Of a stretch of 64,000 nucleotides of DNA, positions 47,412 to 64,000 are shown piece by piece (the stretch's first letter is position 1; the number at the start of each line of letters is the position of its first letter). A program made the translations under genes and the position numbers. The DNA is from an uncultured bacterium. Lineage in GTDB: Bacteria; Chloroflexota; UBA5177; JANWHV01. The notes under the pieces were generated by a model. It had not been told where the DNA came from and did not search any database. It was given only the letters and a program-made list of their open reading frames with translations. The stretch lies in NCBI GenBank assembly GCA_963729625.1, contig CAVSOU010000017.1, forward strand, positions 192,001-256,000. The letters run 5' to 3'.

Positions 47412-48266
47412 TTACCTCCGAGCGATCGTCTCGTGCACAGGTGACGCTGCTATCCCGCCGGCCGGCGTTGGGCGCCTTCTGAGCCATGGAGCGAGCAGGC
47501 GCGCGGAGAAGTACATCGCGCCCACCAGTGCTGAAATGAGAAATCCAACGGGCCAGCCGGTATCGTACGCGGCAACCATGCCGATCCAGGTGGTCGCCAC
47601 GGCTATACCGACCGCGACCAGCAAGGCCCGCCAGGGGGTGCTGGTCAGATAGGTTGCGGCGGCGGCCGGGCCAATCATCAGGCTAAAGATCAGGAGCGTT
47701 CCCACTGTCGGAACCGTCACGGCGGCGGCAATCCCTACCACGATAAGAAAGGCGATGCCAACAGCCGCCGTGGGCACGCCCCGCGCCTGGGCAAGCTCGT
47801 AGTGCATGGTAGTGAGCAGGAGTGGACGGTAGAGCACGCCGAGCGCGAGCAGACAGCCCAGCGACAGAAGGCCCGTCTGCCATACCATGTCACGACTGAT
47901 ACCCACGATGCTGCCGAAGAGCAGGCTGAACGCAGCCGTGGCGTAGGCGTCGTTGAGGCTGAGAAATAGTGCGCCGGCGCCGAGCGCTGCCACCAAAATG
48001 AGCGCGGTCGTCACGTCGCGCCCGTGCTCGCGCGTGCCAAGCACGCCCATGCTGACGGCGCCGCCGACGGCAAAAGCGACAAGACCCCACACCGGCTCGA
48101 TGCCGAGCAGCACCGCTCCCGCCGCCCCGGCAAAACCGATCTGAGCCAGGGAATGGGCCGCGAAGCTGAGGCCCCGGAGTACCACGAAGAAGCCGACCAC
48201 GCCGGCCACGATGGCGACGATGGTGCCGGTAACCAGCGCGTTCTGCATGAACGGCTGGCTGAACAT
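47412..48266 (-). CDS. Zn/Mn ABC permease
   Basis: GFFVVLRGLSFAAHSLA, LLFGSI and GTLLIFSLMIGPAAAA. Confidence 0.9.
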   Translation of the reverse strand: MFSQPFMQNALVTGTIVAIVAGVVGFFVVLRGLSFAAHSLAQIGFAGAAGAVLLGIEPVWGLVAFAVGGAVSMGVLGTREHGRDVTTALILVAALGAGALFLSLNDAYATAAFSLLFGSIVGISRDMVWQTGLLSLGCLLALGVLYRPLLLTTMHYELAQARGVPTAAVGIAFLIVVGIAAAVTVPTVGTLLIFSLMIGPAAAATYLTSTPWRALLVAVGIAVATTWIGMVAAYDTGWPVGFLISALVGAMYFSARLLAPWLRRRPTPAGGIAASPVHETIARR

Positions 48267-48267
48267 C

Positions 48268-49185
48268 TCAGAGTGCAGCACGGCCGGGTATCCTCTTGAC
48301 ATTTCCTCCCTGCAGAGGGCCGCTCGTGCGGCGGAATGCCGGGCGGGCGGCGCGAGCGAACAGGTAGAACAGAAGCACGAGCGTGCAGATGAAGAAGGAG
48401 ACAGGCCACCCCTTTTCACCGGGCGGCCAGTAGTAGCTGTCGTACGATAGGGCGATGCCAGCCCAGGTCTCCAGCACGCCGATAGCGCAGGCTACCGCTA
48501 TGCCGGCGCCCGGTCGGGAGACCAGGTACGAGGCAGTCGCCGGCGGGCCGATCAGGAGCGCGGTGCTGAGCAGCACGCCCACGACCTGCGCCGCCTCCGC
48601 CACGGCGACCGCCATGCACAGCAGGAACAAGGCGGAAACGAGGCGCACGGGCACGCCGCGTGCCTCCGCCACCTGCGGGCTGACCGAGCAGAAGAACAGC
48701 GGACGGGCCAGCAAGGCCAGCAAGAGCAGGCAAGCGCCTCCGATCACGATCATCACGCGCGTTATGTTCGGATCGATCTCAAAGATCGATCCGAAGAGCA
48801 GCGTAAAAGGCTGGCTGACGAAGCGCGTATTGATATAGAGGAACAGGGCGCCGACACCAAGCGCCAGAGCCAGAATCACGCCGGTGGCCACGTCACGCTC
48901 GCGAGCGCGATCGCCGAGCGCGCCCACGCCGAGTGCCGCGGCGACGCAAAATGCCAGCAGGCCCCACAGAGCGTTGATGCCCAGGAGTGCTGCTCCGGCA
49001 CCGCCCGTGAAGCCGATGTCGGTGACCGCGTGGCCGATGAAACTCAGCCCGCGCAGCACGACGAAGAAGCCGATCACGGCACAGACAAGAGCAACGACCG
49101 TACCCGCCTGCAGTGCAGTGATCACCTGGTCGTTCTGCAGCATGTCGAAAATGTTCTGCTGGAGCCAGTCGCGCATGGAGGTCAC
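48268..49185 (-). CDS. Zn/Mn ABC permease
   Basis: GFFVVLRGLSFIGHA, LLFGSI and GVLLSTALLIGP. Confidence 0.9.
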   Translation of the reverse strand: MTSMRDWLQQNIFDMLQNDQVITALQAGTVVALVCAVIGFFVVLRGLSFIGHAVTDIGFTGGAGAALLGINALWGLLAFCVAAALGVGALGDRARERDVATGVILALALGVGALFLYINTRFVSQPFTLLFGSIFEIDPNITRVMIVIGGACLLLLALLARPLFFCSVSPQVAEARGVPVRLVSALFLLCMAVAVAEAAQVVGVLLSTALLIGPPATASYLVSRPGAGIAVACAIGVLETWAGIALSYDSYYWPPGEKGWPVSFFICTLVLLFYLFARAARPAFRRTSGPLQGGNVKRIPGRAAL

Positions 49186-49248
49186 CCCGGTCCGAACCGC
49201 GGAGCGTTCGTGAGCGCCGTCGACGCGCGCCTCGGCACAAGACAGTTC

Positions 49249-50076
49249 CTAGCCATGTGCGTGGTACTCCCGCTCAAACTCGCCGCCGCCAATGATGTCG
49301 GCGCCGGCCACGACCAGAATTCGCCCATGGACATGCAGCACGTCGACAGGGTAGCCGTAGAGCGCGCTCAGCACGTCTGGGCGCACTACCTCATCCACCG
49401 GACCGATGGCAGACCGGCCTTCCGCCAGGTAGAGCACGCGGTCCATCACGGGAAGCAAGGGGTTCATGTCATGGGCGACGAGCATGACGGCGACATCTTG
49501 CTCCCTGCCCAGTCGCGCCACCAGCTGCACGACCTCGTGCGCGCTGCGCAGATCGAGGTTGGCCAGAGGCTCGTCGAGCAGCAAGAGTCGTGGACGGGCC
49601 AGGAGTGCCTGCGCGATCATCAAACGCTGCTGCTCACCGCCCGACAGACGGCCAACCGGCGCGTTGGCAAATTCCAGCGCATCGACCCACTGCAAAGCCT
49701 CGTCAATGCGCATGCGCCTGGAGGCGCTGGGGATTGCGATACCCCACCGCTGCCCGTCGAGTCCCAGTGCGACCAGATCGCGGCCACGCAGCGGCGTGTC
49801 GGGATCGAACTGCTGCTTTTGCGGAACGTAGCCCAGCGCGACGTTTCCTCGCCTGACCGGCCGGCCAAACAAGTGGATCGACCCGGCCGTAGGCCGCAAC
49901 AGTCCGAGAATGACCCGCAAGAGGGTCGTCTTGCCGGCGCCGTTTGTCCCGATGACGCCGATGAATTCCCCCGACCGCACCGCGAGGCTGACATCGCGCA
50001 GGACCGGGCGGCCGCCCAGGTTCAGGCCGACGTGCTCCAGGCTCAAGATGGGAGCGGCCGCGACAGGATCCAACAT
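49249..50076 (-). CDS. Zn/Mn ABC ATPase
   Basis: GTNGAGKTT, GYVPQ, LSGGEQQR and LLLDEP. His-containing C-terminus. Confidence 0.92.
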   Translation of the reverse strand: MLDPVAAAPILSLEHVGLNLGGRPVLRDVSLAVRSGEFIGVIGTNGAGKTTLLRVILGLLRPTAGSIHLFGRPVRRGNVALGYVPQKQQFDPDTPLRGRDLVALGLDGQRWGIAIPSASRRMRIDEALQWVDALEFANAPVGRLSGGEQQRLMIAQALLARPRLLLLDEPLANLDLRSAHEVVQLVARLGREQDVAVMLVAHDMNPLLPVMDRVLYLAEGRSAIGPVDEVVRPDVLSALYGYPVDVLHVHGRILVVAGADIIGGGEFEREYHAHG

Positions 50077-50078
50077 TG

Positions 50079-51059
50079 TTACTCGATCTTTTCGGTCGAG
50101 ATGCCTTTGCTCAGGGCCAGCCTGGTGGCCTGGAGCTCGGCGAGCATCCACTGTTGATAGGTCCTGGACGATGGCTTCGTTTCGTAGACGCCGACGATGG
50201 CGATGCGATGGGACCGAGCGAGCCCGAGAAGCCTGACCGTGATCGGCGCCACGGCCTGCTGATTATAGAAGAAGGCCTTGACCTTGTTCGCGGTGAAGAG
50301 GTTGGTCTCAAGTTGTGCGTCCTGCGGCGACGGATCATTGCCTTCCATGATGGCCAGCGCGAAGGAGTTGGGCGTGAGGATCTTCAGACCGAGCGCCTGC
50401 GCCTCGTAGCTGAAGACGGGCTCGGTGATCGCAATGGGCGTGCCGGCGTACTGCTTTCTGAGCGCGGCAATTCCGTTGGTCCAAGGCTTGAGCGTGGCGT
50501 CGAAGCGGCGCAGGTTGGCGGCGAATGTTGCCGCGCCGGCCGGATCTTGCCGGCTGAGCGCGGCGGCAACCAGCGCGGCGACGCGCGGCATAGTGGTGGG
50601 ACTGTACCAGATATGCGGATTGTCACCAGTTTTGTAGCCCAGACTGGCGCCGGCGTCAAGCACTGTACGCCGGGCATTTGGCGAGGCGTTCTCCAGCTTG
50701 GCGATGAAAGAATCGTAGCCAATACCGTTCTGCACCACGAGTGTTGCCCTCGCCACCGCCGCAGCGTCAGTGGTATTGGATTCGTAGCTGTGAGGGTCGG
50801 TATTTGGATCGCTCAGTATGCTGAATACCGAGACGCGCGCGCCTCCAATCTGTTCGATCACGTCCCCGTACACGTTGGTCGAGGCGACGGCCTGGATCAC
50901 GGCGCCGGCAGCACGCGCGGTATGGGACTGCAGCCCCACCGCGCCAAGGGCAAGCGCAGCTACGGCCAGGAGCCGCGGCACGAGGCAACGGCCGCGATGG
51001 CGCCCACAGGATGTGCAGAACATAGAGACGCTCCAGCCAATCGGGGCGGTCATACTCAC
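50079..51059 (-). CDS. Zn/Mn ABC substrate-binding protein (ZnuA-like)
   Basis: DPHSYE, NGIGYD, NPHIWY and TEPVF. Start uncertain (51059, 51053 or 51023). Confidence 0.92.
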   Translation of the reverse strand: MSMTAPIGWSVSMFCTSCGRHRGRCLVPRLLAVAALALGAVGLQSHTARAAGAVIQAVASTNVYGDVIEQIGGARVSVFSILSDPNTDPHSYESNTTDAAAVARATLVVQNGIGYDSFIAKLENASPNARRTVLDAGASLGYKTGDNPHIWYSPTTMPRVAALVAAALSRQDPAGAATFAANLRRFDATLKPWTNGIAALRKQYAGTPIAITEPVFSYEAQALGLKILTPNSFALAIMEGNDPSPQDAQLETNLFTANKVKAFFYNQQAVAPITVRLLGLARSHRIAIVGVYETKPSSRTYQQWMLAELQATRLALSKGISTEKIE

Positions 51060-51156
51060 GGATGCGCTGCCTCGCGGCGCCCTGGCGTGCCCTTGCCGGG
51101 ACGCAGGAGCACTTGCCCGTCAACGCGCGATCACCTTCCGCGCGAGCCCGTTTCGA

Positions 51157-51213
51157 ATGATAACGATTATCATCAATAATCGTTATCATAGTCCGTTGCC
51201 CGGCGTGTGTCAA
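51157..51213 (-). promoter_or_regulatory. Promoter with overlapping double Fur/Zur box
   Basis: Minus strand TTGACA (51208-51213), N17, TATGAT (51185-51190). Perfect inverted repeat ATGATAACGATTAT-CATCA-ATAATCGTTATCAT (51157-51189). Confidence 0.85.
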
Positions 51214-51255
51214 TGGCTGCGCCTGAGATCGGGCATACTAAAGTGGTGCCACGCC

Positions 51256-51384
51256 GGAACGCGCACGGTGGTCATGTCTTGGCGATGGAGTGGGTGGCCG
51301 GCGCATCCACGGCGGACGAGGACAGCACCCGCCTCGGCGGGTCCCCGGCCCCCAGAATCGTGCGGTTCGATGGAGATCCCGTCG
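51256..51384 (+). repeat. Dispersed ~130-bp intergenic repeat, copy 2
   Basis: Same length and orientation as 35270-35398, with scattered substitutions. Confidence 0.85.
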
Positions 51385-51487
51385 GCTTCAGTCTAACGTC
51401 ATACGATTGCTCATCATGCCGCCTCTCAGCGTGTTGCCGGCTTCGCACGCTGTGCCCGGCAGCACATGTTGATTGGAGACATCGGTA

Positions 51488-53395
51488 ATGGCTTGTCTGT
51501 CCGCGCGCCGGGCGCGCGTGCTGTTCTTCGCCTGCACGCTGACCCTGGCTGCCGTCCTCCCGGCACGTGCCGCGCCACCGGCGACGCCGTTGCCGAGCCC
51601 CAGTCCGATGGCCTTGTCCGCGATGCTGAGCAGCGCGACCAATCCACCGCGCGATCTCCTGACGCTAGCCGCGCGGCTCAAGTTGCACACGGCGTTGCCC
51701 ATAGACCCTATCGTCAACACAACGCCGACGGATTATGCCGTAGGCCGCATGGACCAATTCTACGTCTGGACTGGAAGCGGCAGCCACCTGGTAGCCGCGC
51801 GGCTCGTCTCCAAGACGGCGCACGCCTACTTCTACGTGCAGAGCGGCATCAGCGTCGACCTCAACGCGCTGGCGCGCTCGGCCTCGACGTTCGAGAACAC
51901 CATCTATCCCACTGACACGGCAGCCTTTGGCCCGGTATGGACGCCGGGTATAGACAACGACCAGCATACGACGATCTTCAACGGCAGCCTGCAGGGGTCC
52001 GGCGCCGCCGGCTACGTGTCCGCTGAAGACCTCGATCCACGATCGGCGGCGCCGCAGAGCAACCAGCGCAAGATCCTCTATATCGACCTCGGCTCGAACG
52101 ATCCCGGCTCGCAAACCTATGACCAGACGCTGGCCCACGAGTTCCAGCACGTGATTCACGCGCACCTGCACCCGACAGATGAGGCGTGGCTGAACGAGGG
52201 AAGCTCGGTGCTGGCTCAGGTTCTGAACGGCTACAGCTCTGCCGGGGCCGATGAACAGAAGGCGCAGCAGCCCGACGCGCAGCTGGACGTGTGGGATCCG
52301 ACCAGCACTATCGGCTACGGCAACGGATTTATGTGGATGCTGTACCTGTACGAGCACTTCGGTGGTACGAAGGCAACGCGCATGGAACTCGCCGACAGCG
52401 GCCTCAGCGGCATGCACCTGTTCGACGATCTTTTGCCCAAGCTCGGTTACCAGGAAACCGCCAACCAGATGTTTGCCGACTGGGTGGTGGCGAACTTCCT
52501 GAACGATCCCGCGATCGACGGCGGCCGTTACGGCTACCAGCACACGCGGGTGCACATGCTGGCGACCAGCACGCAGCCGCTGCCCTTCGCGCAAACCACC
52601 ACGATGCACCAATATGCGGCGAACTACGTCGACATCGCACAAACCGCCGGCCGGCCCTTCACCCTGACCTTCGCCGGCCGCCCGACCGTGCCTCTGCTCA
52701 GCACGACGCCGCCCGCCACCGGATTCTGGTGGAGCAATCGGGGCGACAGCGTGGACGATACGCTGACGCTGCCACCGCTCGATCTGCGCCACGTGGCGCG
52801 AGCGAGCCTGCAGTACCAGCTGTGGTACGACCTCGAAAAGGACTATGACTACGGGTACGTGGAGGTCTCCGCGGACGGCGGCGCCACGTGGTACGTGCAG
52901 CGCACGGCGCGGACGACGAACAGCAATCCGAACGGAGCCAATCTTGGCAACGGCTATACAGGCTCGAGTTGCTCGCCGGTCACGCGGGCGCGGCAGTGCT
53001 GGCTGACGGAGCAGCTCGACCTTTCGGCCTACGTGGGGAAGCGCATCCTCGTACGATTCGAGCAGGTCACGGACGACGAGCTCAATCTGCAGGGCATCGC
53101 GCTGAGCGGAATTCGCGTGCCGGAAATCGGCTTCGACGGCGACAGCACGGCGGGCGGCTGGCAGCCGGCCGGCTGGGTGCGGGTGACGAACACGCTGGCT
53201 GAGCGGTGGATCGTGCAGGCCATCGTCTACGGACCGCACGGCGTTTCCGTGCTGCAAATGCCGGTGGGTGCCGACGGCCGCGGCAGTCTGCGCATCCCCG
53301 CGGGCAGCAGCCGGGTAGTGGTGGCCGTCTCGCCCCTGGCGCCGCTGACCACCGTCGCGAACACCTACACACTCGGCGCGTCGACCGGTAATTGA
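51488..53395 (+). CDS. Secreted zinc metalloprotease with immune-inhibitor-A-like beta domain
   Basis: Signal peptide. TLAHEFQHVIH...WLNEG zincin motif. C-terminal WYDLEKDYDYGYVEVSADGG and DLSAYVGK. Confidence 0.85.
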   Translation: MACLSARRARVLFFACTLTLAAVLPARAAPPATPLPSPSPMALSAMLSSATNPPRDLLTLAARLKLHTALPIDPIVNTTPTDYAVGRMDQFYVWTGSGSHLVAARLVSKTAHAYFYVQSGISVDLNALARSASTFENTIYPTDTAAFGPVWTPGIDNDQHTTIFNGSLQGSGAAGYVSAEDLDPRSAAPQSNQRKILYIDLGSNDPGSQTYDQTLAHEFQHVIHAHLHPTDEAWLNEGSSVLAQVLNGYSSAGADEQKAQQPDAQLDVWDPTSTIGYGNGFMWMLYLYEHFGGTKATRMELADSGLSGMHLFDDLLPKLGYQETANQMFADWVVANFLNDPAIDGGRYGYQHTRVHMLATSTQPLPFAQTTTMHQYAANYVDIAQTAGRPFTLTFAGRPTVPLLSTTPPATGFWWSNRGDSVDDTLTLPPLDLRHVARASLQYQLWYDLEKDYDYGYVEVSADGGATWYVQRTARTTNSNPNGANLGNGYTGSSCSPVTRARQCWLTEQLDLSAYVGKRILVRFEQVTDDELNLQGIALSGIRVPEIGFDGDSTAGGWQPAGWVRVTNTLAERWIVQAIVYGPHGVSVLQMPVGADGRGSLRIPAGSSRVVVAVSPLAPLTTVANTYTLGASTGN

Positions 53396-53432
53396 CCAGG
53401 CGAGGACACCGTGCCGAGCGAGCCCCGTCGCA

Positions 53433-55541
53433 TCAGCCGCCTGCTGGCCTTGCAGGACCGGCTTTCACCCGCCGCTTACCGTTTCCGTCGATGATCTGGT
53501 GCCAGGCATCGTTCTCAGGACCACCGAATATCTCGGAAAGGGCCTTTGGAACAAGTTTGTTGGCGCGAGCATTGCGGTCAGTCTGAAATGCAGGTAGGGC
53601 CTTCTCCAAGACACCGATGATACGTCCCCAGAAGCACCCGTCGGCGCGCATGTACTCCATAGCCTGGCGGTCTGCCCGCAGGGCATTGATCGCGCGCCGC
53701 TCATAGGCGGCGAGTGCGTCTTGATCGACGTCCACGTTACTGTGAGCGTCCTCACCAGCCATCTCGGCAGCCGTGCTTAGCTCAGCCCGGAATCGCTCTC
53801 GTAGCTCGCAGGAAAACGTCGGCACCCCTGCCCTGCCGTAGTGCGGGTCGAGCGGCGAATACATGTTCTCGAAAGACAGAACTCGGATGGCCACAGGGTA
53901 GGCCTGTCCGCCAACCGAACTCCAGAAGACGCCCTGTCCCGGTATCGGCTCATTGAGCAAGCCGCTCAGCAGATCGTCACTAAAGTGAGCATTGGCACGC
54001 TGCAGGGTCATCAGGTCGGCCGACGATAGCAGATGGAAGACAAACCAATTGTCGCCCTGGCTCAGGATTTCACCTGGAATGCTGCCGGGCTGCTGGGTAA
54101 CCAGCATTGCACCCAGATCGTACTTCCGTCCTTCCTTGATCCAGGCGATAAAGGGCTCAGACGAGGCATCTCCCTCGTGCAAGACGGATTGCGCTTCCTC
54201 AATGACCGCGATGGTCGGGATGGTGCGCGACTCGGCCTCGGTGAATTGTTGCTGATTATGGTCGAAGATGCGGCGCAAGATCAACCCGGACAAGATCATC
54301 GCCTGGCTGCCACGCAATTGGCTCACGTCGACAACGCAGAGCTTGCCTTCACGCAACGCAACCAGGAGCATGTCGAGGAACTGGCTGCGGGAATCATGGA
54401 TGGTGTGCACGATCTGGACAATATTGCTGCGCGCCGCAAGCGCTTCCGCCTCCTGTTTGACCGGGTCCAGGTCGAGAAGCCGGCACATATCCTCGATAGG
54501 GGTCTGGTATCCTCCCGCCGCGACAACTTTCACCAGCTCTTCCCATCGCCCCTGCGGCAGAGCACGCAGCTTACGCACGTTCTGCTGGTCTTGGCGCTCG
54601 GGTGACACGGCGATAGAGATGACGTCGCCAGCCGACATACGGCGCAGATCCAGCTTGATCGGGCCGGCCACGAACGACTGGTAGAACGGGCTTGGGCCCT
54701 TGCGCGACGTGAAGACGACGACCTTGTCCTGGAGATCAGGCACATCGCAGAGGCCCGGCCGTCCTTTATCGTCCGGCCAGAAGTATTCCCCGTCCGGATC
54801 GAAGATCACGGTGCCGACCGGGACCTCTCTGTCGCCGCGTTTGCGCACGGTCGGCGTGGTCGCGTACAGCGTGCTGAACAGCAACTTGTTGAGGTTGGAC
54901 TTGCCGAAACCGGCACGCGCGAAGATGAACGAGCGCCGCGCCACCAGGCTCTGAACAGGAAACTTCACCAGAATCTCGGGCGTCTTCACCTGCATGCCGT
55001 CCAGCAGGCTCGCGTCTGCGCTCCGATCGCAGTAGATGTACTCGCCCAGCGCGAAGTGCCCGATTGGCGCCCCATCTACGTTGTGCCCGGCGATCTCGCG
55101 CAATACTTCGCCAGTGGGGAAGGCCACCGGGCTGCCGACGTGGGGCAGCCGGCGATGCGACGGCAGAAATGTGATTCCAGGTCTATCCGCAATGGCATGA
55201 CTGCGCAGGACGCCGAGGATGCGGATGTTGACGCGATACTTCAGATACTGTTCTCGCAGGTCTTCGGGCACCTCACGATGCTCGAGCACGGCTCTAATGG
55301 TGAACTCTTCGCCAGAGCCGAACGACAGCTTGCCCTCGCTGGAGAAGGAGGCAATCCGCCCCAGCACGGCCTCTTCGGGTGTCTCCAACTGCACCAACAG
55401 GAACTGTCCGTGCATGGGAGAACTCTGGAACTCATTCCGGTATGGCAGAGCCAGCTCGGCATGGAACTCCAGCCCACCCTCGCGGAATCCCCGGAAGACG
55501 CCGACGATGAGGTCCTGGCTGAAGAGCTTGAGTGCCGCCAA
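53433..55541 (-). CDS. herA: HerA/FtsK-family ATPase (HerA-like)
   Basis: N-terminal HAS-barrel-like region, Walker A FIFARAGFGKS, VIFDPDGEY, Walker B IAVIEEAQ, and arginine-finger motif EGRKYDLGAMLVTQQP. TTG start with RBS GGGAGG. Confidence 0.85.
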   Translation of the reverse strand: MAALKLFSQDLIVGVFRGFREGGLEFHAELALPYRNEFQSSPMHGQFLLVQLETPEEAVLGRIASFSSEGKLSFGSGEEFTIRAVLEHREVPEDLREQYLKYRVNIRILGVLRSHAIADRPGITFLPSHRRLPHVGSPVAFPTGEVLREIAGHNVDGAPIGHFALGEYIYCDRSADASLLDGMQVKTPEILVKFPVQSLVARRSFIFARAGFGKSNLNKLLFSTLYATTPTVRKRGDREVPVGTVIFDPDGEYFWPDDKGRPGLCDVPDLQDKVVVFTSRKGPSPFYQSFVAGPIKLDLRRMSAGDVISIAVSPERQDQQNVRKLRALPQGRWEELVKVVAAGGYQTPIEDMCRLLDLDPVKQEAEALAARSNIVQIVHTIHDSRSQFLDMLLVALREGKLCVVDVSQLRGSQAMILSGLILRRIFDHNQQQFTEAESRTIPTIAVIEEAQSVLHEGDASSEPFIAWIKEGRKYDLGAMLVTQQPGSIPGEILSQGDNWFVFHLLSSADLMTLQRANAHFSDDLLSGLLNEPIPGQGVFWSSVGGQAYPVAIRVLSFENMYSPLDPHYGRAGVPTFSCELRERFRAELSTAAEMAGEDAHSNVDVDQDALAAYERRAINALRADRQAMEYMRADGCFWGRIIGVLEKALPAFQTDRNARANKLVPKALSEIFGGPENDAWHQIIDGNGKRRVKAGPARPAGG

Positions 55542-55555
55542 TTGCAGCCTCCCTT

Positions 55556-56698
55556 CTACGAATAGCGGGCCTGCGCTGGATCTTCGTCGCGTAACCGGAA
55601 GATGTCCAGGGCAGATGACTGCAGACCAAGCGACGTCCGGATTCCTTCGAAGATCTCGTCCTGCAGGATGTCGAGGTCGAATCCCACCAAAGCCGCGTGG
55701 TCGTGTGCCTGTTGCAAACAGCGTGGATAGAACGGCACGGGAAAGCCCTGCACCGCGTCATACAGCAGCGAACCCAGTATCACTTGCGCGGAGAGTACCT
55801 GCGGTTCATACACGTCGACGGGCCAGATGGGGTCACGCGTCGCCGAACCGAACTTCGCCCAGAAGAGCCTGCCCGCCACACGCAGGTTTCCGCCCTCGTG
55901 GTCACGTCCGGCATTGAGCCCAATCCTGTACTGCGATCGATGGCCGGCTCGCTCCTCCAGCTCGCGCGGCACCTCGACATAGGCGGCGTACGGCACCGCA
56001 AGCACGCCTTCCAATGCCATCGCCAGCCGGTAGCGGTCGAGGACCTTGCTGCGCTTGGCCACGCCGACGAGGTATACGCGGCTGTGGTTGCGCTGCCAGT
56101 GGCGGTCAATCGATTCCGACATCCCCTCCATCAGGCGCGCAAAAAGGTCCCGGGCAAACACCACGCTGCGCAAGAGTCCGTCGAACACGATCAGCGTGTC
56201 ATTGCCGAAGTCCTTGGTCCGCACGAGATAGAACAGCACGGCCCACTCGATAAGCTCGCGATACGTTCTGATCCAGCCGGGATTGGCGGCCCGACCATCC
56301 GTACTGGCCTGAATCAGCTGGCTCAGTTCTGAGAGATGGCGGACACCAAGATACGCCATCATCTCGCCCAGCCGGGTGGCCTCTCCCTCACTGCCGAACT
56401 GGTGCGCGCTCAGCTCGTCAATGTTGGTGTTCGGCGTGACGACCTCCAGGCAGTGGCTGTTGTTGGCCGAGTCGACCACGCGGACCATCTGGATGAGGAA
56501 CGGGTCAAACTGCAGCTGATTGTTGCCGCCGTCCGCGGCGACCAGCGAAATGGAGCTGGTATTGCGCTGCTGGATGCGGCGCGTTTCGCCCACCAGCGGC
56601 TGTATCTCAGCTCGCAGCTTGTCGAGCAGGTGCCGGTCCGCGGCAATGCTCGCCGCGATGGACCGGCGCAGCTTCTCACGTTCGTCGGTGTCGATCAT
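55556..56698 (-). CDS. nurA: NurA-like nuclease (RNase H fold)
   Basis: VAADGG, ELIE, IVFDGLL, LVGVAKRS and FYPRCLQQAH..A motifs. Ends 14 bp upstream of the HerA-like gene. Confidence 0.78.
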   Translation of the reverse strand: MIDTDEREKLRRSIAASIAADRHLLDKLRAEIQPLVGETRRIQQRNTSSISLVAADGGNNQLQFDPFLIQMVRVVDSANNSHCLEVVTPNTNIDELSAHQFGSEGEATRLGEMMAYLGVRHLSELSQLIQASTDGRAANPGWIRTYRELIEWAVLFYLVRTKDFGNDTLIVFDGLLRSVVFARDLFARLMEGMSESIDRHWQRNHSRVYLVGVAKRSKVLDRYRLAMALEGVLAVPYAAYVEVPRELEERAGHRSQYRIGLNAGRDHEGGNLRVAGRLFWAKFGSATRDPIWPVDVYEPQVLSAQVILGSLLYDAVQGFPVPFYPRCLQQAHDHAALVGFDLDILQDEIFEGIRTSLGLQSSALDIFRLRDEDPAQARYS

Positions 56699-56800
56699 GC
56701 GCGGCCATCCCCCTCGTCACTGAATCACGCGCACAGGCGTATTCGCGACGATTTGCCCCTATCCGTGCCATCGTACGCCTTGGGCGTGTTGTCGCCAATC

Positions 56801-58669
56801 CTACGAATGGCTGAAGAAGGCGCGGCCTTGCGGAAAAATGGGCTCTACCAACAACGAGCGATCGAGGTACTTATTACCGCGCTCGCACGCCGTCTCGGGA
56901 GCGAACAAACAACTGTGGCAGGCCGCGCCGTGCAGGGTCAAGCTGTGCTGGCTCGGCAGATGCTCGGCGCACAGGGGATCGGACGAACACAACCCGGCCT
57001 CTTCCAGCGCGAGATCAAGCAACCGGCCAAGCGTCTCAGGTTCACCAAGGCTGACGAGGCCGCCGAGTGTGCCCTCGCTGTCCGGCGCCGCCGTGTAGAT
57101 CAGCACGCCCGCCATCGGCCCATCTTCATCAAGCGGAGGAAGCGAGTAGATTCGCTCGCAGATGCTTGAGGCGGTGTATCCGCACTCGAGAGAGAGCCGG
57201 CGCATCAAGGCGTGCGAGAAGGAATGCAGAAGCACGTAACGCAGACCGGGAAAGTTGCTTCCTGCCGGGACCAGATGATGGCTCGTTCGCCAGGCCTTGT
57301 GGCCCTGAAAGAACTCCGCCCGCCAGCTTTCGAGCGCCGGCTGTTCCTCCCACGCCTGTATTGCTTCCTCACGGAAGCGGATGAAGATGCCTTCACCCCG
57401 CACCTCCGAGGCTGGGACCCATTTGGGGTCCTGTCTGGAAAGCGGCGCTCTCCGGTCCACCGGCACCTCTTCCGTTTCGGAGATATCGCCGGGCGAGACG
57501 ATGCGCGTAAAGCCGAGTAGAGCCCGCACTTCGCGCAGACGCTCCACGAGTACGACGCCGCTTATCTGCTCGCTATACCCCGCGGGCGGGGCCACCGGCC
57601 GCAAGCGGAAATCTCGCGTCTCCTGGTCAGGATCGGGGTCGGAGAATATTCGCCACTCCGCGGTGCGCAACTTGCCGGGCTTCCGCGACTCGGCCAGTGT
57701 GCCGCCGCCGCGGTGCCGCTCAATGGCCTCCCACAATTCGGTGTTATCGACCGAAGCAAATGCCGGCAAATGGCCCAGTTCCCTCAGCAAGGCGAGGCGG
57801 TCCGGATTCGTGACCTTGCTCAGCGTGACCCACTGTTGCTCGACCAGCCGCCCCAGCGCATCATGAGCGCTGGGAATGGCCAAAGCCGACACGCTCACAG
57901 GGAACCAGAAGTTGGACGCCCCGAGCAGAATGGCCCGATGTTGCTCCTGGCAGGTCTTGTCACTGTAGTCGCGAAGATGCGGTCTGCGGCCGCTGCAGTT
58001 GAGATGGTGCAGGGCGCTGTCGGGCCCAAAGGCTTCGGCCATGCTGCGCCGTGCCTGGCAATTCTCACACTCGACCGTCACTTCCGCCGCTTCGCCGGAC
58101 ACACCGAACTCATGGAGCTTCAGCCGCGGTGCCTGACAGACGGTGGCGTACCCCTTGTGCACGTACCAGACCCAGGGGAAGTCGTCGAGGTGACCAGCCT
58201 GGCAGGCAACGAGGAACCGCGCCGGAATGGCCGCCGGTTTGGGTGGCTTTCGCGTGCAGTTGTGATGAATATAGCGCGAGCGGTCAGTGCGGTAGGGGTC
58301 GATAGTAAGTTTAAAGAGTTCACTGCTCACCGGCGCCAGGCGCCGGCAGAAGGGGCAGACCAGCCAGCGAGGGAAGGTCGCGACCGGGATCCCGACGTCG
58401 TTGGCTTGGCCGTAGGGGCCGCCTAGATCCCCGTCCAGCAGGTGAGGTGCCGCACGCATACTTTCCACCTGCGTACCGAGTACCTGGCGCACCGCCTCGA
58501 GCAGCCGATCCTCGCCGATTTCCTGTGCGTAGGTGCCGTCCCAGTCCTCCAGGCCCATCACCAACGTGGCCATGTTGGGCAGATCGATAATCGCGCCGAC
58601 GCCGAACGTCACGAGAGTCTGGCTGGGCCGCACTTCGCCGACGCGGCTGCTTCGCGACGCAGGTTTCAC
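56801..58669 (-). CDS. drmB: DISARM DrmB (DUF1998)
   Basis: GEVRPSQ..TFGVGAIIDLP, HSFSHALMRRLSLECGY, GTLGGL and CSSDPLC...ACHSC..PETACE.GN.YLDR. GTGA overlap with drmA. Confidence 0.92.
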   Translation of the reverse strand: MKPASRSSRVGEVRPSQTLVTFGVGAIIDLPNMATLVMGLEDWDGTYAQEIGEDRLLEAVRQVLGTQVESMRAAPHLLDGDLGGPYGQANDVGIPVATFPRWLVCPFCRRLAPVSSELFKLTIDPYRTDRSRYIHHNCTRKPPKPAAIPARFLVACQAGHLDDFPWVWYVHKGYATVCQAPRLKLHEFGVSGEAAEVTVECENCQARRSMAEAFGPDSALHHLNCSGRRPHLRDYSDKTCQEQHRAILLGASNFWFPVSVSALAIPSAHDALGRLVEQQWVTLSKVTNPDRLALLRELGHLPAFASVDNTELWEAIERHRGGGTLAESRKPGKLRTAEWRIFSDPDPDQETRDFRLRPVAPPAGYSEQISGVVLVERLREVRALLGFTRIVSPGDISETEEVPVDRRAPLSRQDPKWVPASEVRGEGIFIRFREEAIQAWEEQPALESWRAEFFQGHKAWRTSHHLVPAGSNFPGLRYVLLHSFSHALMRRLSLECGYTASSICERIYSLPPLDEDGPMAGVLIYTAAPDSEGTLGGLVSLGEPETLGRLLDLALEEAGLCSSDPLCAEHLPSQHSLTLHGAACHSCLFAPETACERGNKYLDRSLLVEPIFPQGRAFFSHS

Positions 58670-61600
58670 TCCGCTGCCTCCTCGCCGACATCGGGCTCCC
58701 GTTCATCAACGAGGCTCCACGCACGAGTTTCGTCCAGGTTTCCTTCTCTGAGGATGAGACCGACTTCCGGCTCGACATCGCGGACGGAGTTGAGACAGGT
58801 AAATGGCGGCCAGCTGCCCAGCTCCGGCTGCGACAAGAGGCCGACGGTCACTCCATCCTGTTTCGGCCGATAACCCAGACGCTTTCCGCCCGTCGTATCC
58901 GCGGCGCGAGCGATCCACGTTCGGACCAGATCGCGGAGATCGTGCTCAACGCGAGCCCTTGCCAGGCCACCGTCCACAGCCTCAGCGCGAGCACCAACCG
59001 CTGCGATTGCTCGCTCAAACAGCACATGCTCGCCGGTGAATGCCGCCGCCCCGTCGTTTGCCGCGAAATCTGGCAGGCTGAGCCGTACAAGGGCAACCAG
59101 CACCGATGCCAGGCCGCGGTCCAGCGCCCGGGCGGCGAAGGGAGTGACCGACAGCGCCTCGACATGCCGATAAAACGTGGCATGAAAATGCTCGAAGTGC
59201 TCGTAGTGCGAGAGGTCGCGTGGTCTTGCCCAATTGAAGACGGTGCACACAAGCCCAGGAAAGCTGCGTCCCACACGGCTAGTGGCCTGAATGTATTCCG
59301 CCGTGCTCTTCGGCTGACCCGCCACTACCATCAGGCCCAGCCGCTTGACGTCGACGCCGACCGACACCATGTTGGTGGCCAGCAACACGTCCAGGGGGGA
59401 TTGCGTCGCCGACTTCGAGCCGAGCGCGCTCGCTTTCCCACCCGCGGATCCATCTTTCGCCGAGCCGAAGCGCACTTCCAGCCGATCGAGCAGACGCGGA
59501 ATGTCGGCCGCGCTCTTGCGTGAAGTCAGCTCTTCGAGCCTCGGCGTGCCGCGTTTGGCCAGGCCATGCAGGTCCATGCGCTGCAGGCGCGAGCGTACAT
59601 CGTCCTCGACCAGCCGTCGCATGCCTCCCAGCTCCCGCATGGAGTTGAAGTAACCCACCAGCGTCATCCAGGGGTCCGTGGCCACATCATATTTCACATA
59701 CAGCTGCTGGGCAGCCGCGAGATAGGCTACGTAGACCCGAATGAGGGCGGCTTTGAGGCGCCGGCCCGGCGCGCATATGCCCAGGTAGCGGCGGCCGGGG
59801 CGCGTGTCGTCAGGCTGGACCTGCCGGGAGAAGAAGTTGTCGCTCGCGTCAAGTCCCTGTGGCGGGAACACCTGCACGCGCCGCAAGAACAATGAACCCA
59901 TCTGCTCGCCTGCCCGCCGGATAGTGGCGGTGGAGGCGATGACCTTCGGTCGCACAATCCGGCCATCCACACTCCAGGTGGAGAGCTGATCCACCGCTGT
60001 CTCGTACAGACCGACCAGAGCGCCGAGAGGTCCATTGATCAGGTGAAGCTCGTCCTGAATGATCAGGTCCGGCGGACGCAACTGCGGGTGCGGGATGGTG
60101 CGCACCGCTGAGAGCTGATTGTATTTAGGATGGGAGTCGGAATCGGGCAGGTCCGGCGAGCGGAAACCGTGCCGTGGGCACATGCCTGTAACGCGGCCAA
60201 AGAGCATCTGCGTGGCGCCGCGCCAGGGCATCTGGGCGAACTTGTCAACCGTAGCAATGAGCAGTGCCGGCAGCAGGCGATAGATTTCTTCGTCCACCAG
60301 CAGCACTGGCAGTCCTTCGCCCTTTGCCTGGTAGCGGGAGAACAGGCACTCGCCCATGACCTGGCCGCAGTAGATGAGCGTGCGACCGCGGCCGGCTTTC
60401 AACGTCTCGACGTCGATATCCTTTCCCTGGTCGATAGGGCTTCCACACCAGGGGCAATAGGTTAGCTGTGCAGGCGAGCCGCTCCCACCGCCGCCAAACT
60501 GACCGTGCGACTGTTTGATTGCTTCGTTACTCTGGTCCGTGGTATTGGGAGTGGTGCGTTGGCCAACCCAAAGCCCGATACGAAACGGCACCGTGCCCCA
60601 GCGGCCATCCCCCCGATCGAGAGCCGCGCGCCGAAGGTGCTCGCAGGCGCAGATCAGCGTCGCGGCGCGCTGGAACTGCTGGAGCGTGAGCAGGCGCAGG
60701 GTGTAGCGCATGAGCACCGCCACTCCATGCTCCCCGTCGTACCCGGCGACCGTTCCTTGCAGGCGCCGCATCGCCAGCGTATAGGCGGTGAGACCAAGGT
60801 ACGCCTCCGTCTTGCCGCCGCCGGTGGGGAACCACAAGAGGTCGGCCGTGGCCTCGGCACCTCCCGTGCGCTCGCTGTGCCCGAGATCGGTGAGGCCAGG
60901 CAGGTTCAGCAAGATGAAGGCCAGCTGGAACGGGCGCCAGCTGCGGTTCTCCGGCACGTCGAGGCTTTCAAGACTCGGCTTTTCGCCGCGCCGAACGGCA
61001 TCCGCCAGCAAGGTGTGAACGCGCTGCTGCCACATCGCGCGGTTCATGAACTGAAAGGCAGACGTCGCATTCCCGTCCCTGCCGAGCAGCTCGACGCCGG
61101 CGCCGATCCGCGTGCAGGCCGCGCTGCAGCGGTCCAGTACCTCCAAGGGCACGCTGCCAAAGGCCGTCAGCCCGCGGCCCGGGTCCGCCATCTCACTGCG
61201 TCGCTGCTCGATCCACGTGGCGTAGGCGCGCGGCAACTCGCGCAAGGTAGCCTGCAGCGCCTCGAGGGGCAGCTCCGCCAACACCTTCATGTCCAACGTC
61301 AGGTCAGCTAGCGCGGGTATCTCCGCGGCCGTAGGCGCCACCGTCTGGGGCAGGTCGTAGCTGGGCACGACCTGCGTGCCGACGCGTAGCGCACGCCCTG
61401 CATGGTCAGGGTCGGGCGTCACCTCCACGGAAACGCCGTGACCCACGGCGTACTCGCTGTGGCTGCGGTAGAGCATGGCCAATGCCAGCTCTTCGGCCCG
61501 CTCGTCCGGCTTGCCGTGGGCCAATTGCTCGGGACGCAACCGCGAGACGAAGATTGGGGCGCCGTCCGGGGATTCGGCCACGATCTCAGCCTGGAAGAGC

Positions 61601-62232
61601 CAGGCACTGTCTTTGCTACGCCTGCGCGCCGGCTGGCTATTCACCAGGAAGATCGAGATCACCCAGTTCTGATCGATCTGGCGAACGATACCCTCGAGCC
61701 GCACGCCCCTTTCTTCCGGATCGATCTCCAGCCCAATCTTCCGCTTTCGCACTTCGAGCGTCTCCACAACCTCGACCGGCGCGCGCTTCCACACGTGCTT
61801 GGGCGCGCCTTTGTCCGTCGAAGCTGTCTCGCTGGGTGCGCGTTCGTACCGTCCCCAGCGGCACGTAACGCGCAACTCAGCCGTTTCCGGGGCCACGGCG
61901 AAGGTCAGGCCGATGGAGGACGGTGCGTAGGACTGCGTAACCGGCGTGTCGACATCTGTGGGTCCATCCTCGGGCGCTCCAGCGCCACCCTCGGCATGGT
62001 CGTCGTCATCGGACGCCTGGACCTCGCTGTTCCTGGGCGCCAGCATGCCCACGAGGTAGCGGTCGCGCAGAGATCGGTCGTCGACTTCCTCTTGAGGCCC
62101 GCCTGCCGGGCCCAGAAGATCCAGGAGGACAGCGCGCTGCAGCTCGTCGCGAATGGCGGCTGGACATGGGATGCCCAGTTGCGTTCTGCTCTCGGGCACG
62201 TCGGTAGTACCTAGAGATCCCATAACGTCCAA
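58666..62232 (-). CDS. drmA: DISARM helicase DrmA
   Basis: YLVGMLAP N-terminus, WFPTGGGKTEAY, RYTLRLLTLQQFQRA, ATVDKFA, IQDELHL, ASTAT, ATNMVSVGVDV and YIQATSRVGR. 1188 aa. Confidence 0.93.
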   Translation of the reverse strand: MDVMGSLGTTDVPESRTQLGIPCPAAIRDELQRAVLLDLLGPAGGPQEEVDDRSLRDRYLVGMLAPRNSEVQASDDDDHAEGGAGAPEDGPTDVDTPVTQSYAPSSIGLTFAVAPETAELRVTCRWGRYERAPSETASTDKGAPKHVWKRAPVEVVETLEVRKRKIGLEIDPEERGVRLEGIVRQIDQNWVISIFLVNSQPARRRSKDSAWLFQAEIVAESPDGAPIFVSRLRPEQLAHGKPDERAEELALAMLYRSHSEYAVGHGVSVEVTPDPDHAGRALRVGTQVVPSYDLPQTVAPTAAEIPALADLTLDMKVLAELPLEALQATLRELPRAYATWIEQRRSEMADPGRGLTAFGSVPLEVLDRCSAACTRIGAGVELLGRDGNATSAFQFMNRAMWQQRVHTLLADAVRRGEKPSLESLDVPENRSWRPFQLAFILLNLPGLTDLGHSERTGGAEATADLLWFPTGGGKTEAYLGLTAYTLAMRRLQGTVAGYDGEHGVAVLMRYTLRLLTLQQFQRAATLICACEHLRRAALDRGDGRWGTVPFRIGLWVGQRTTPNTTDQSNEAIKQSHGQFGGGGSGSPAQLTYCPWCGSPIDQGKDIDVETLKAGRGRTLIYCGQVMGECLFSRYQAKGEGLPVLLVDEEIYRLLPALLIATVDKFAQMPWRGATQMLFGRVTGMCPRHGFRSPDLPDSDSHPKYNQLSAVRTIPHPQLRPPDLIIQDELHLINGPLGALVGLYETAVDQLSTWSVDGRIVRPKVIASTATIRRAGEQMGSLFLRRVQVFPPQGLDASDNFFSRQVQPDDTRPGRRYLGICAPGRRLKAALIRVYVAYLAAAQQLYVKYDVATDPWMTLVGYFNSMRELGGMRRLVEDDVRSRLQRMDLHGLAKRGTPRLEELTSRKSAADIPRLLDRLEVRFGSAKDGSAGGKASALGSKSATQSPLDVLLATNMVSVGVDVKRLGLMVVAGQPKSTAEYIQATSRVGRSFPGLVCTVFNWARPRDLSHYEHFEHFHATFYRHVEALSVTPFAARALDRGLASVLVALVRLSLPDFAANDGAAAFTGEHVLFERAIAAVGARAEAVDGGLARARVEHDLRDLVRTWIARAADTTGGKRLGYRPKQDGVTVGLLSQPELGSWPPFTCLNSVRDVEPEVGLILREGNLDETRAWSLVDEREPDVGEEAAE

Positions 62233-62566
62233 TCAAAAGACTGCAGCAGAGGTGAAGCACCCTCTCCAGGCACAACAACGAGCAGGGGCCTCTTGGGCCG
62301 GCGATACGCTGCCGGCCTGCGATGCCACAGTAACCTTAACCCCCGGGTGCTCGTCGCTACAAGCATGTCGAGACGTTGCGGAACGGCGCCCTGCAACCAC
62401 GGGTTGTACGAAGACGTTGCGTTCATGGCGGCTGGTGCTGCCCATGCGGGCTGGCCGTTTCCGCGCCGACCGTTCGTGGCCTGGCGGCCGGTCAGACGTC
62501 GCGACAAGCCGAACAGGGACGAATGGCACTCTCGCCTGACAAGCACACGATGTACCATGGACTGAC

Positions 62567-62788
62567 ATGCCAAGAAAGAAGCGCCAAATTCGCAGCGACT
62601 ACCGGGCAGCTGGCTTCATCGAACGACGGGGAAAGGGCGACCATACCGTGTTCTCCTATCCTGGACTGCCCAAGCATTTCGCAGTGGATGGCTCGGACGG
62701 TGCGGACGCCAAGCCGTATGATGAGCGAGATCTGCGTGCGGCCCTGCGAGCACGTGCTGAAGTAATCGCACGGAGGAATCAGGAATGA
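62567..62788 (+). CDS. hicA: HicA-family toxin
   Basis: 73 aa, basic. GF...GKGDH (catalytic His) and DAKPY motifs. Confidence 0.85.
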   Translation: MPRKKRQIRSDYRAAGFIERRGKGDHTVFSYPGLPKHFAVDGSDGADAKPYDERDLRAALRARAEVIARRNQE

Positions 62789-63012
62789 ACGTGGAGTCAC
62801 GCTATTCGATCCTGATCGAATGGAGTTCGGAGGATCAAGCGTTCGTGGTGATCCTCCCCGAATGGGCTGACCGCTATCAGATGCCGGTGGCCGATGGGGC
62901 GACGTACGAAGAAGCACTGGCTCGCGGTCGGAATGCCCTGGAGAACTACATACAGTTTGCTCTTGAGGACAACATCCCTCTGCCCTCACCGCGCGAATTC
63001 GTCGCAGCCTAA
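62785..63012 (+). CDS. hicB: HicB-family antitoxin (short, no DNA-binding domain)
   Basis: YSILIEWSSEDQAFVVILPEW...DGATYEEAL...PLP. ATGA overlap with hicA. Confidence 0.88.
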   Translation: MNVESRYSILIEWSSEDQAFVVILPEWADRYQMPVADGATYEEALARGRNALENYIQFALEDNIPLPSPREFVAA

Positions 63013-63337
63013 TCCGCGGCCCGCCCGGCCATTGCCAAATCGCCAGGGCGCACGCACTCCCTTACGTGCCACTGCCGGAATCGCCGACAGTGTCGGCGCA
63101 CAGGCAACTCGCGCCGATCGTTGGCGCCACGACAGATATCGCAACGCCCTGGCGCGAAGGCTCCATCGGTCCATGCACGTACCCGCCCAGCCACCCTGGC
63201 GGGGCCGTCTCCAACGGGCTACAATGGGCAGGGCCGCCAAGGTTGACGACGCTGTCTCGCCCGCCACGTCCTACGCACCAGTTTGTCGCAGGCAGCGTTG
63301 TGCCTGAGTTGCGTGGCCAGGTGTGAAAGGACACTGT

Positions 63338-64000
63338 GTGGCCCTCGCAACCGTGCCCGCGCCGGGCCAGCTGGTCGATGTTCGCCAGCGGCGCTTCGTC
63401 GTCACCGACGTCTCGGCGTCGCCACTCGGACGAAGCCGCGATGCGCATCCCGGTCACGATCTGCAGCACGTCGTCTCCCTCTCGTCCATCGAAGACGACG
63501 CGCAGGGCTCCGAACAGCTTCGCGTGATCTGGGAGATCGAGCCCGGCGTCCACGTGCGTGAGACAGCCGAATTGCCCTCGCCCGAGCACGGCTTCGACGA
63601 TCCAAGCCGGCTCGACGCCTTCCTCGACGCCGTACGCTGGGGCGCCATCGCCTCTGTAGACACGTCAACCCTGCAGGCGCCGTTCCGCAGCGGCATCGAG
63701 ATCGAGGACTACCAGCTCGATCCGGTTGTGCGGGCCATCGGCATGCCGCGCGTCAATCTGCTGATCGCCGACGACGTGGGTCTGGGCAAGACGATCGAGG
63801 CCGGCCTGGTGGCGCACGAGCTGCTCCTGCGCTACCGTGCCCGCTCGATCATGGTTGTATGCCCGTCTGCCATCCAGATCCAGTGGCGCGACCAGATGCT
63901 GGCCAAGTTCGGTCTGGAGTTTCGCATCGTCGACAGCGAGCTGATGGCTCACCTGCGCCGCACGCGTGGCCTACATGTGAATCCCTGGCAGCATTTCCCT
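63338..64000 (+). CDS. drmD: DISARM SNF2-like helicase DrmD (5' part, runs off the window; absent from the ORF track)
   Basis: Manual translation from GTG 63338: MALATVPAPGQLVDVRQRRFVV...VIWEIEPG...LDAFLDAVRWG...LQAPFRSGIEIEDYQLDPVVRAI.MPRVNLLIADDVGLGKTIEAG...NPWQHFP. Confidence 0.9.
   Translation, partial: MALATVPAPGQLVDVRQRRFVVTDVSASPLGRSRDAHPGHDLQHVVSLSSIEDDAQGSEQLRVIWEIEPGVHVRETAELPSPEHGFDDPSRLDAFLDAVRWGAIASVDTSTLQAPFRSGIEIEDYQLDPVVRAIGMPRVNLLIADDVGLGKTIEAGLVAHELLLRYRARSIMVVCPSAIQIQWRDQMLAKFGLEFRIVDSELMAHLRRTRGLHVNPWQHFP

Follow-up and report, generated by a model that had tools for sequence, protein, structure and literature searches.

Downstream of drmA and drmB in a DISARM (defense island system that is associated with restriction-modification) locus of an uncultured bacterium, the slot of the nuclease gene drmC is occupied by two genes encoding a NurA-like nuclease and a HerA-like ATPase. 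The locus lies in a stretch of 64,000 nucleotides (G000:C17:192001-256000, contig CAVSOU010000017.1), which in its entirety is referred to here as the window; the next 18 kb beyond the window were also read. The arrangement raises the question of whether the NurA/HerA pair is the effector of a new kind of DISARM, or a defense module of its own that has come to lie beside DISARM genes. Comparison of the neighborhoods of the pair and of DrmB in other genomes pointed to a lineage-specific juxtaposition of known kinds of system and did not support a new DISARM subtype. It probably represents two separate defense modules stacked in one defense island, possibly sharing one read-through transcript.

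The original prediction had described four co-oriented genes in the order drmA-drmB-nurA-like-herA-like, and this layout was confirmed in the list of open reading frames (ORFs), with all four genes on the minus strand, drmB directly following drmA with an overlap of 4 bp, and gaps of 102 bp and 14 bp on the two sides of the NurA-like gene (coordinates in Table 1). The identities given to drmA and drmB also held, with NCBIfam scores far above the curated cut-offs and concurring PADLOC calls: DrmA scored 1369 bits with DISARM_DrmAS (NF038325, cut-off 950) and 1033 bits with the PADLOC DrmA model, and DrmB scored 689 bits with DrmB_fam (NF038324, cut-off 240) and matched Pfam MZB at an expectation value (E) of 7e-10.

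The NurA-like protein had no match in Pfam (E up to 0.01, including the NurA family PF09376), PADLOC or NCBIfam. Its AlphaFold2 model (predicted local distance difference test score 76, predicted template modeling score 0.77) was compared with solved structures using Foldseek, and the best match was TdpB (8wet_G), with E 2.3e-11, a template modeling score of 0.58-0.64 and an identity of ~19-20%. NurA of S. solfataricus followed (2ygk, 1.3e-5), with further NurA matches from P. furiosus, T. kodakarensis and D. radiodurans (3tai, 9x1n, 7f6d; E up to 2e-3). The 380-residue protein is therefore NurA-like in fold, with TdpB as its nearest known relative, and the call made from the letters alone survives at the level of the fold and fails at the level of the hidden Markov model by which it was to be checked. 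Homology to TdpB is distant, the A1 profile reaching TdpB by sequence at an E of only 0.039. Residues D56, E85, D173 and H332 were invariant in an alignment of 32 homologs, and from their position in the motifs we take them to be the putative NurA catalytic set.

For the HerA-like protein, the corresponding Pfam search gave DUF87 (PF01935) at 2.4e-18, in agreement with the earlier call. The closest solved sequence was TdpA (3.9e-20), followed by S. solfataricus HerA (4d2i, 2.5e-10), and the protein carries a Walker A motif, GFGKS, from residue 211 and a Walker B motif, IAVIEEAQ, from residue 444. Comparison of herA with contigs from the public run X1 revealed 16 variant sites, 14 of which were synonymous, a pattern indicating that the gene is under purifying selection.

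The NurA-like protein has a large family: of 8000 candidates that were scored, over 2800 proved to be relatives at an E of 0.001 or below. The closest are four metagenome proteins at 94, 77, 71 and 68% identity, after which identities of ~56-62% are spread across many phyla, which fits horizontal spread. Relatives are encoded in 250 species genomes, and the loci analyzed here are the best 80 of the 250 matching stretches in the species-genome collection. In 78 of these 80 loci the next gene downstream of the NurA-like one was HerA-like, and the remaining two end at a contig edge. Clustering of all neighboring ORFs revealed a recurrent third gene, encoding a protein of ~372 amino acids that matched Pfam N6_N4_Mtase and the PADLOC MTase_II models. 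When its position was scored by tblastn, this methyltransferase gene was found immediately downstream of herA in 52 loci, immediately upstream of the NurA-like gene in two, and elsewhere in the locus in three; eight loci flanked by at least 1.3 kb on each side lacked it, and in 15 loci the flanks were too short for a call. Its presence in 57 of 65 informative loci identifies the usual unit as a three-gene cassette resembling a restriction-modification system, and it was also found downstream of the pair in 5 of 11 metagenome relatives. The window pair thus belongs to a widespread mobile cassette family, normally composed of a NurA-like protein, a HerA-like protein and an N6/N4 DNA methyltransferase. 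The NurA-like protein had no tblastn match in 72,556 plasmids. Among close kin of the host the distribution of the pair is patchy, one of 60 related genomes containing it, as a relic only. In the literature searched we found no phage-defense test of the NurA-HerA-methyltransferase cassette and nothing relevant on a methylase-coupled NurA-HerA defense system.

The eight pairs without a methyltransferase occur in varied places, and such pairs are therefore tolerated by other hosts. In three loci (L013, L015 and L022) the gene before the pair encodes ~1100 amino acids with sacsin and NOV_C domains, and further upstream in L013 is a helicase-nuclease gene combining UvrD and PD-(D/E)xK domains. In three others (L024, L034 and L058) a WYL regulator is divergent upstream, with DUF3223 downstream in two of them, and in the last two (L060 and L064) the pair sits between housekeeping genes. 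A relative from the same phylum (L162; G160:C133) has a NurA-like gene followed by a truncated HerA-like one that matches residues 525-693 only.

The family showed no recurrent linkage to drmAB. There were no DrmA or DrmB matches within up to 10 kb of the pair in any of the 80 loci, 55 of which have at least 3 kb of upstream sequence, and no DrmB match accompanied any of the 11 metagenome relatives. The closest relative with a flank (L086, 71% identity) has a divergent ORF of no known family upstream and no drmB, and it becomes homologous to the window only from the start codon of the NurA-like gene onward, outside the 102-bp gap. An 18-base stretch upstream of this gene in L086 that resembles the 3' end of drmB was considered and set aside as not significant (E 0.65). 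A search for short DrmB fragments that could lie on the contigs of P0003, P0004 and P0006, other members of the subclade of the window pair, gave none above 68% identity and none on contigs of 3003 or 3713 bases. The search from the DISARM side agreed: of 401 genomes sampled from the phylum, 43 encode DrmB, and at none of the 29 other DrmB loci was a NurA-like gene present within 1.5 kb downstream. With the linkage seen at none of the 80 genome loci, 11 metagenome loci and 29 DrmB loci, the suggestion of an undescribed DISARM subtype is not supported by the criterion stated with it; the alternative offered with it, a NurA-HerA defense module embedded in a DISARM locus, fits the independent and widespread cassette family, normally equipped with its own methyltransferase. 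No report linking DISARM with NurA or HerA was found in the literature searched. The main text of a YprA-family survey (10.1101/2025.09.15.676423) contains neither 'NurA' nor 'HerA', and its supplements may list such neighborhoods.

One other genome, G402, has the cassette adjoining a class 1 DISARM, as reconstructed from three to four short contigs (among L010, L151, L148, L156 and L157) chained via identical 127-base ends. There, herA and nurA share one strand and are divergent from drmD-drmMI, which converge on drmC-drmB. DrmC is kept (406 bits), and the methyltransferase gene of the cassette comes after herA. Cassette and DISARM are both complete and self-sufficient in this genome, the DNA 5' of drmB, where drmA is expected, lying outside the sequence read. 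Two herA contigs of G402 have the same 127-base end, which indicates two variants in the assembly.

The window locus itself is a class 1 DISARM without drmC, with drmD and drmMI running in one direction and drmA and drmB in the other. It shares drmD, drmMI, drmA and drmB with the full class 1 set (drmD, drmMI, drmA, drmB and drmC), all with strong family scores, and differs by having no drmC on the contig, which is a known and common condition, and by the NurA/HerA pair in the drmC slot. The absence of a phospholipase D (PLD/HKD) gene, initially noted for the window, was verified there and extended with the DrmC model and PLDc_2 to the full 330-kb contig C17, so that a drmC just beyond the window was looked for and not found; in a scan of the whole genome, all matches to the two models were on contigs C8, C10, C12 and C21. 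The earlier description of drmC as a fixed core gene of both DISARM classes was too strong. According to the available portions of two studies (PMC9142583; 10.1101/2021.12.28.474362), DrmC is dispensable and often missing from DISARM loci, and drmC-less DISARM is thus already known in print; it is on this account that we file the locus as a drmC-less class 1 DISARM. The 29 other DrmB loci of the phylum agree with this picture: 13 have DrmC directly after drmB, 12 (of 25 tested) have no DrmC in the downstream ORFs tested, and the remaining 4 were untested.

The drmMI gene, encoding an adenine methylase, is broken into two ORFs with a 49-base overlap, which score 876 and 865 bits with PADLOC and cover model positions 5-626 and 628-1336, end to end. 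Reading the three frames beside an intact homolog traced the split to a 1-base frameshift just past the S-adenosylmethionine (SAM)-binding motif. In X1, the one public run containing this DNA, a contig carries an additional C behind L159:15447 (= L003:6447), restoring a single drmMI frame (one contig, depth 3.7). An assembly error or minor variant is thus a likelier source of the split than a dead gene.

Table 1. Features of the DISARM locus and the NurA/HerA pair. Positions are those of the window unless a contig is named.
Feature	Position	Strand	Support
HerA/FtsK-type ATPase gene, TdpA-like, 702 aa (P0002)	53433..55541	-	Pfam DUF87, TdpA
NurA-fold nuclease-like gene, TdpB-like, 380 aa (P0001)	55556..56698	-	fold match
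gap between drmB and NurA-like gene, 102 bp	56699..56800	-	
drmB, DUF1998/MZB protein, 622 aa	56801..58669	-	NCBIfam DrmB_fam, Pfam MZB
drmA, DISARM helicase of the short class 1 type, 1188 aa	58666..62232	-	NCBIfam DISARM_DrmAS, PADLOC
divergent region drmA/drmD, 1090 bp	62233..63322	.	
drmD, 5' part, SNF2 helicase, 1077 aa; extends past window end, then drmMI	63323..64000	+	PADLOC DrmD 1366 bits
drmMI (adenine methylase), just past window	L003:4553-8730 = G000:C17:258553-262730		two ORFs, one DrmMI model

If two modules are stacked here, as seems probable, DrmAB together with DrmD and DrmMI would act as published for DISARM. In the available text of the two studies cited above, a trigger loop autoinhibits DrmAB, and DNA with a 5' single-stranded overhang activates it (PMC9142583; 10.1101/2021.12.28.474362). 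The pair would act independently, by analogy with TdpAB and HerA-NurA: its products are predicted to form a complex in which a HerA-type hexameric ring ATPase feeds DNA into a NurA-type dimer, which would degrade it, with the free ends of incoming phage DNA as the likely entry point and phage defense as the presumed role. As both modules would act on DNA ends, an additive effect may arise without any contact between them.

Several particulars of the junction weigh against a mere juxtaposition. The position of the pair is precisely that of drmC, close behind drmB and co-oriented with it; no terminator-like sites were found in 53000-57200, where the sole promoter-like site is inside herA. A homolog of the cassette methyltransferase is absent from the window, from L003 and from the genome (87% complete), the best genome match being one of 27 bits on contig C8, at the level of the SAM-binding motif only. 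The window pair also forms a separate subclade with four metagenome proteins, 58% identical to the main clade, within which mean identity is 77%; the contigs of the subclade are short. Nor is the junction brand new. A same-genus genome, G001, contains a relic of it (C9; L101:12837-13191) at a site not syntenic with the window, where the last 29 drmB codons at 90% identity are followed by NurA-like fragments with a large internal deletion. The junction therefore either existed before the two species diverged or passed from one to the other, and one of them has lost it. Composition gives no date for it, since neither GC content nor GC content at third codon positions (GC3) shows a break between drmAB and the pair. 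Finally, DrmB was found in 11 of 54 pair-holding genomes, a count that does not extend to the genomes from which 26 of the 80 loci come and, being uncontrolled for taxon or for defense-rich genomes, is a hint only; within the phylum, DrmB was found in 3 of 4 other pair-holding genomes, compared with 43 of 401 overall, likewise an uncontrolled hint that we do not count as a finding. Among the genomes in which DrmB and the pair co-occur, they are adjacent in G402 only. A complex prediction for DrmB residues 10-622 with the NurA-like protein gave no verdict (score 0.00, mark 0.32), and is evidence neither way.

These particulars can be read as functional capture, in which the pair, parted from its own methyltransferase, was recruited to the drmAB operon to serve DISARM as its nuclease effector, replacing DrmC, with DrmMI providing the self mark. 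Besides the position of the pair, the lack of a terminator-like site and the missing methyltransferase, capture would suit the predominance of synonymous variation in herA, a drmMI that is probably intact given the extra base in the X1 contig, and the proposal in the available part of PMC9142583 that DrmAB may recruit other nucleases, among 'mix-and-match' components. Two of the 29 related DISARM loci also hold an ATPase-containing pair in the same slot. In these drmC-less class 1 loci (L152:4902-8917 of G352 and L153:2502-7076 of G280), drmB is followed on the same strand by an AAA_5 ATPase of 760-790 amino acids and a large partner protein, of 544 amino acids in L152 and 764 in L153, with a weak PD-(D/E)xK match in L153 only. 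In two other drmC-less loci, drmB runs straight on to unrelated genes. We nevertheless regard capture as unlikely. The arrangement was seen in one genus only, the relatives of the pair are self-contained with none adjoining drmAB, and in G402 the cassette retains its methyltransferase and the DISARM its DrmC. Pairs without a methyltransferase occur in unrelated contexts, so that the missing gene alone need not imply DrmMI, and the same-genus G001 has lost the arrangement. More doubtful still is the fuller version, in which a TdpAB-like NurA/HerA motor was captured into the drmAB operon as a processive DISARM effector with DrmMI as the self mark, and ATPase-nuclease effectors in general would dock in the slot after drmB.

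That the pair is an inactive or silenced remnant of a cassette without its methyltransferase, decaying as in the sister species, is improbable: the missing methyltransferase, the mere 29-codon drmB tail and NurA-like fragments left in G001 and the truncated HerA of L162 would fit such a fate, but both window ORFs are full length, the NurA-like protein keeps the family-invariant residues and the HerA-like protein its Walker motifs, 14 of 16 herA variant sites are synonymous, and there is no GC3 discontinuity.

The pair can be placed by comparison with known systems. TdpAB are its closest solved relatives, TdpB by fold and TdpA by sequence, and the NurA-like and HerA-like genes are adjacent in both. 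The source paper for TdpABC is reportedly An et al. 2025 (Nat Chem Biol 21:1160). The window pair differs from TdpABC in having no adjoining modification gene, its neighbors being drmB and an InhA-like MAM-domain gene (for tdpC, only adjacency was checked), and the usual partner of its family is an amino-methyltransferase and not a phosphorothioation enzyme. TdpABC is a phosphorothioate-based restriction system, as described in the available parts of PMC12914056 and PMC13223576, with TdpAB structures in PDB entries 8wet, 8wfd and 8y1k. With the NurA-HerA-methyltransferase cassette the window pair shares the protein families and the tight NurA-HerA pairing; it differs in lacking the methyltransferase and in its separate subclade. 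The archaeal and Deinococcus HerA-NurA complexes that resect DNA ends (2ygk, 3tai, 9x1n, 7f6d) have in common with it the NurA fold, a HerA-type ATPase and adjacent genes. Similarity to them is, however, much weaker than to TdpAB, Pfam NurA gives no match, and the pair sits in a defense island and not in a repair operon, with a patchy, horizontally spread distribution. The Sir2-HerA and DUF4297-HerA anti-phage systems likewise pair an effector with a HerA-type ATPase, and the HerA-like protein matches them weakly (8j4u, 8wiv and 9c1m; PADLOC HerA up to 58 bits), whereas the effector in the window has a NurA fold, and the NCBIfam anti-phage HerA models scored 48 against a cut-off of 800.

With DrmC dispensable and often missing, the question arises of how phage DNA is destroyed or blocked by DISARM. 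The idea that DrmAB recruits other nucleases could be tested directly on a natural locus of this kind, which has a predicted processive nuclease-motor pair in the DrmC slot, and if capture were true, class 1 DISARM would gain a processive nuclease effector. As a juxtaposition in one lineage, the arrangement is not to be counted as a DISARM subtype. The wider point is the NurA-HerA-methyltransferase cassette, which is widespread and close to TdpAB.

The DISARM locus is part of a larger defense island, as indicated by two genes past drmMI: a defense-type reverse transcriptase (L003:8769-10301; PADLOC Drt6 528 bits, Drt4 500 bits), with a GC3 of 0.63 compared with ~0.77 in the adjoining genes, and beyond it a PDC-S19/DUF3644 gene (L003:11536-12441). 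Two minus-strand ORFs at the divergent region between drmA and drmD (62492-62989, 165 amino acids; 63062-63589, 175 amino acids) had no family match in Pfam or PADLOC. The AAA_5 ATPase and partner pairs found after drmB in G352 and G280 are McrBC-like in composition and belong to no PADLOC family. On the other flank of the window locus, the InhA-like MAM-domain gene, encoding 640 amino acids, is convergent on herA with 37 bp between them; together with a ZnuABC-type zinc uptake operon it makes up the ordinary flanking genes at 47412-53395.

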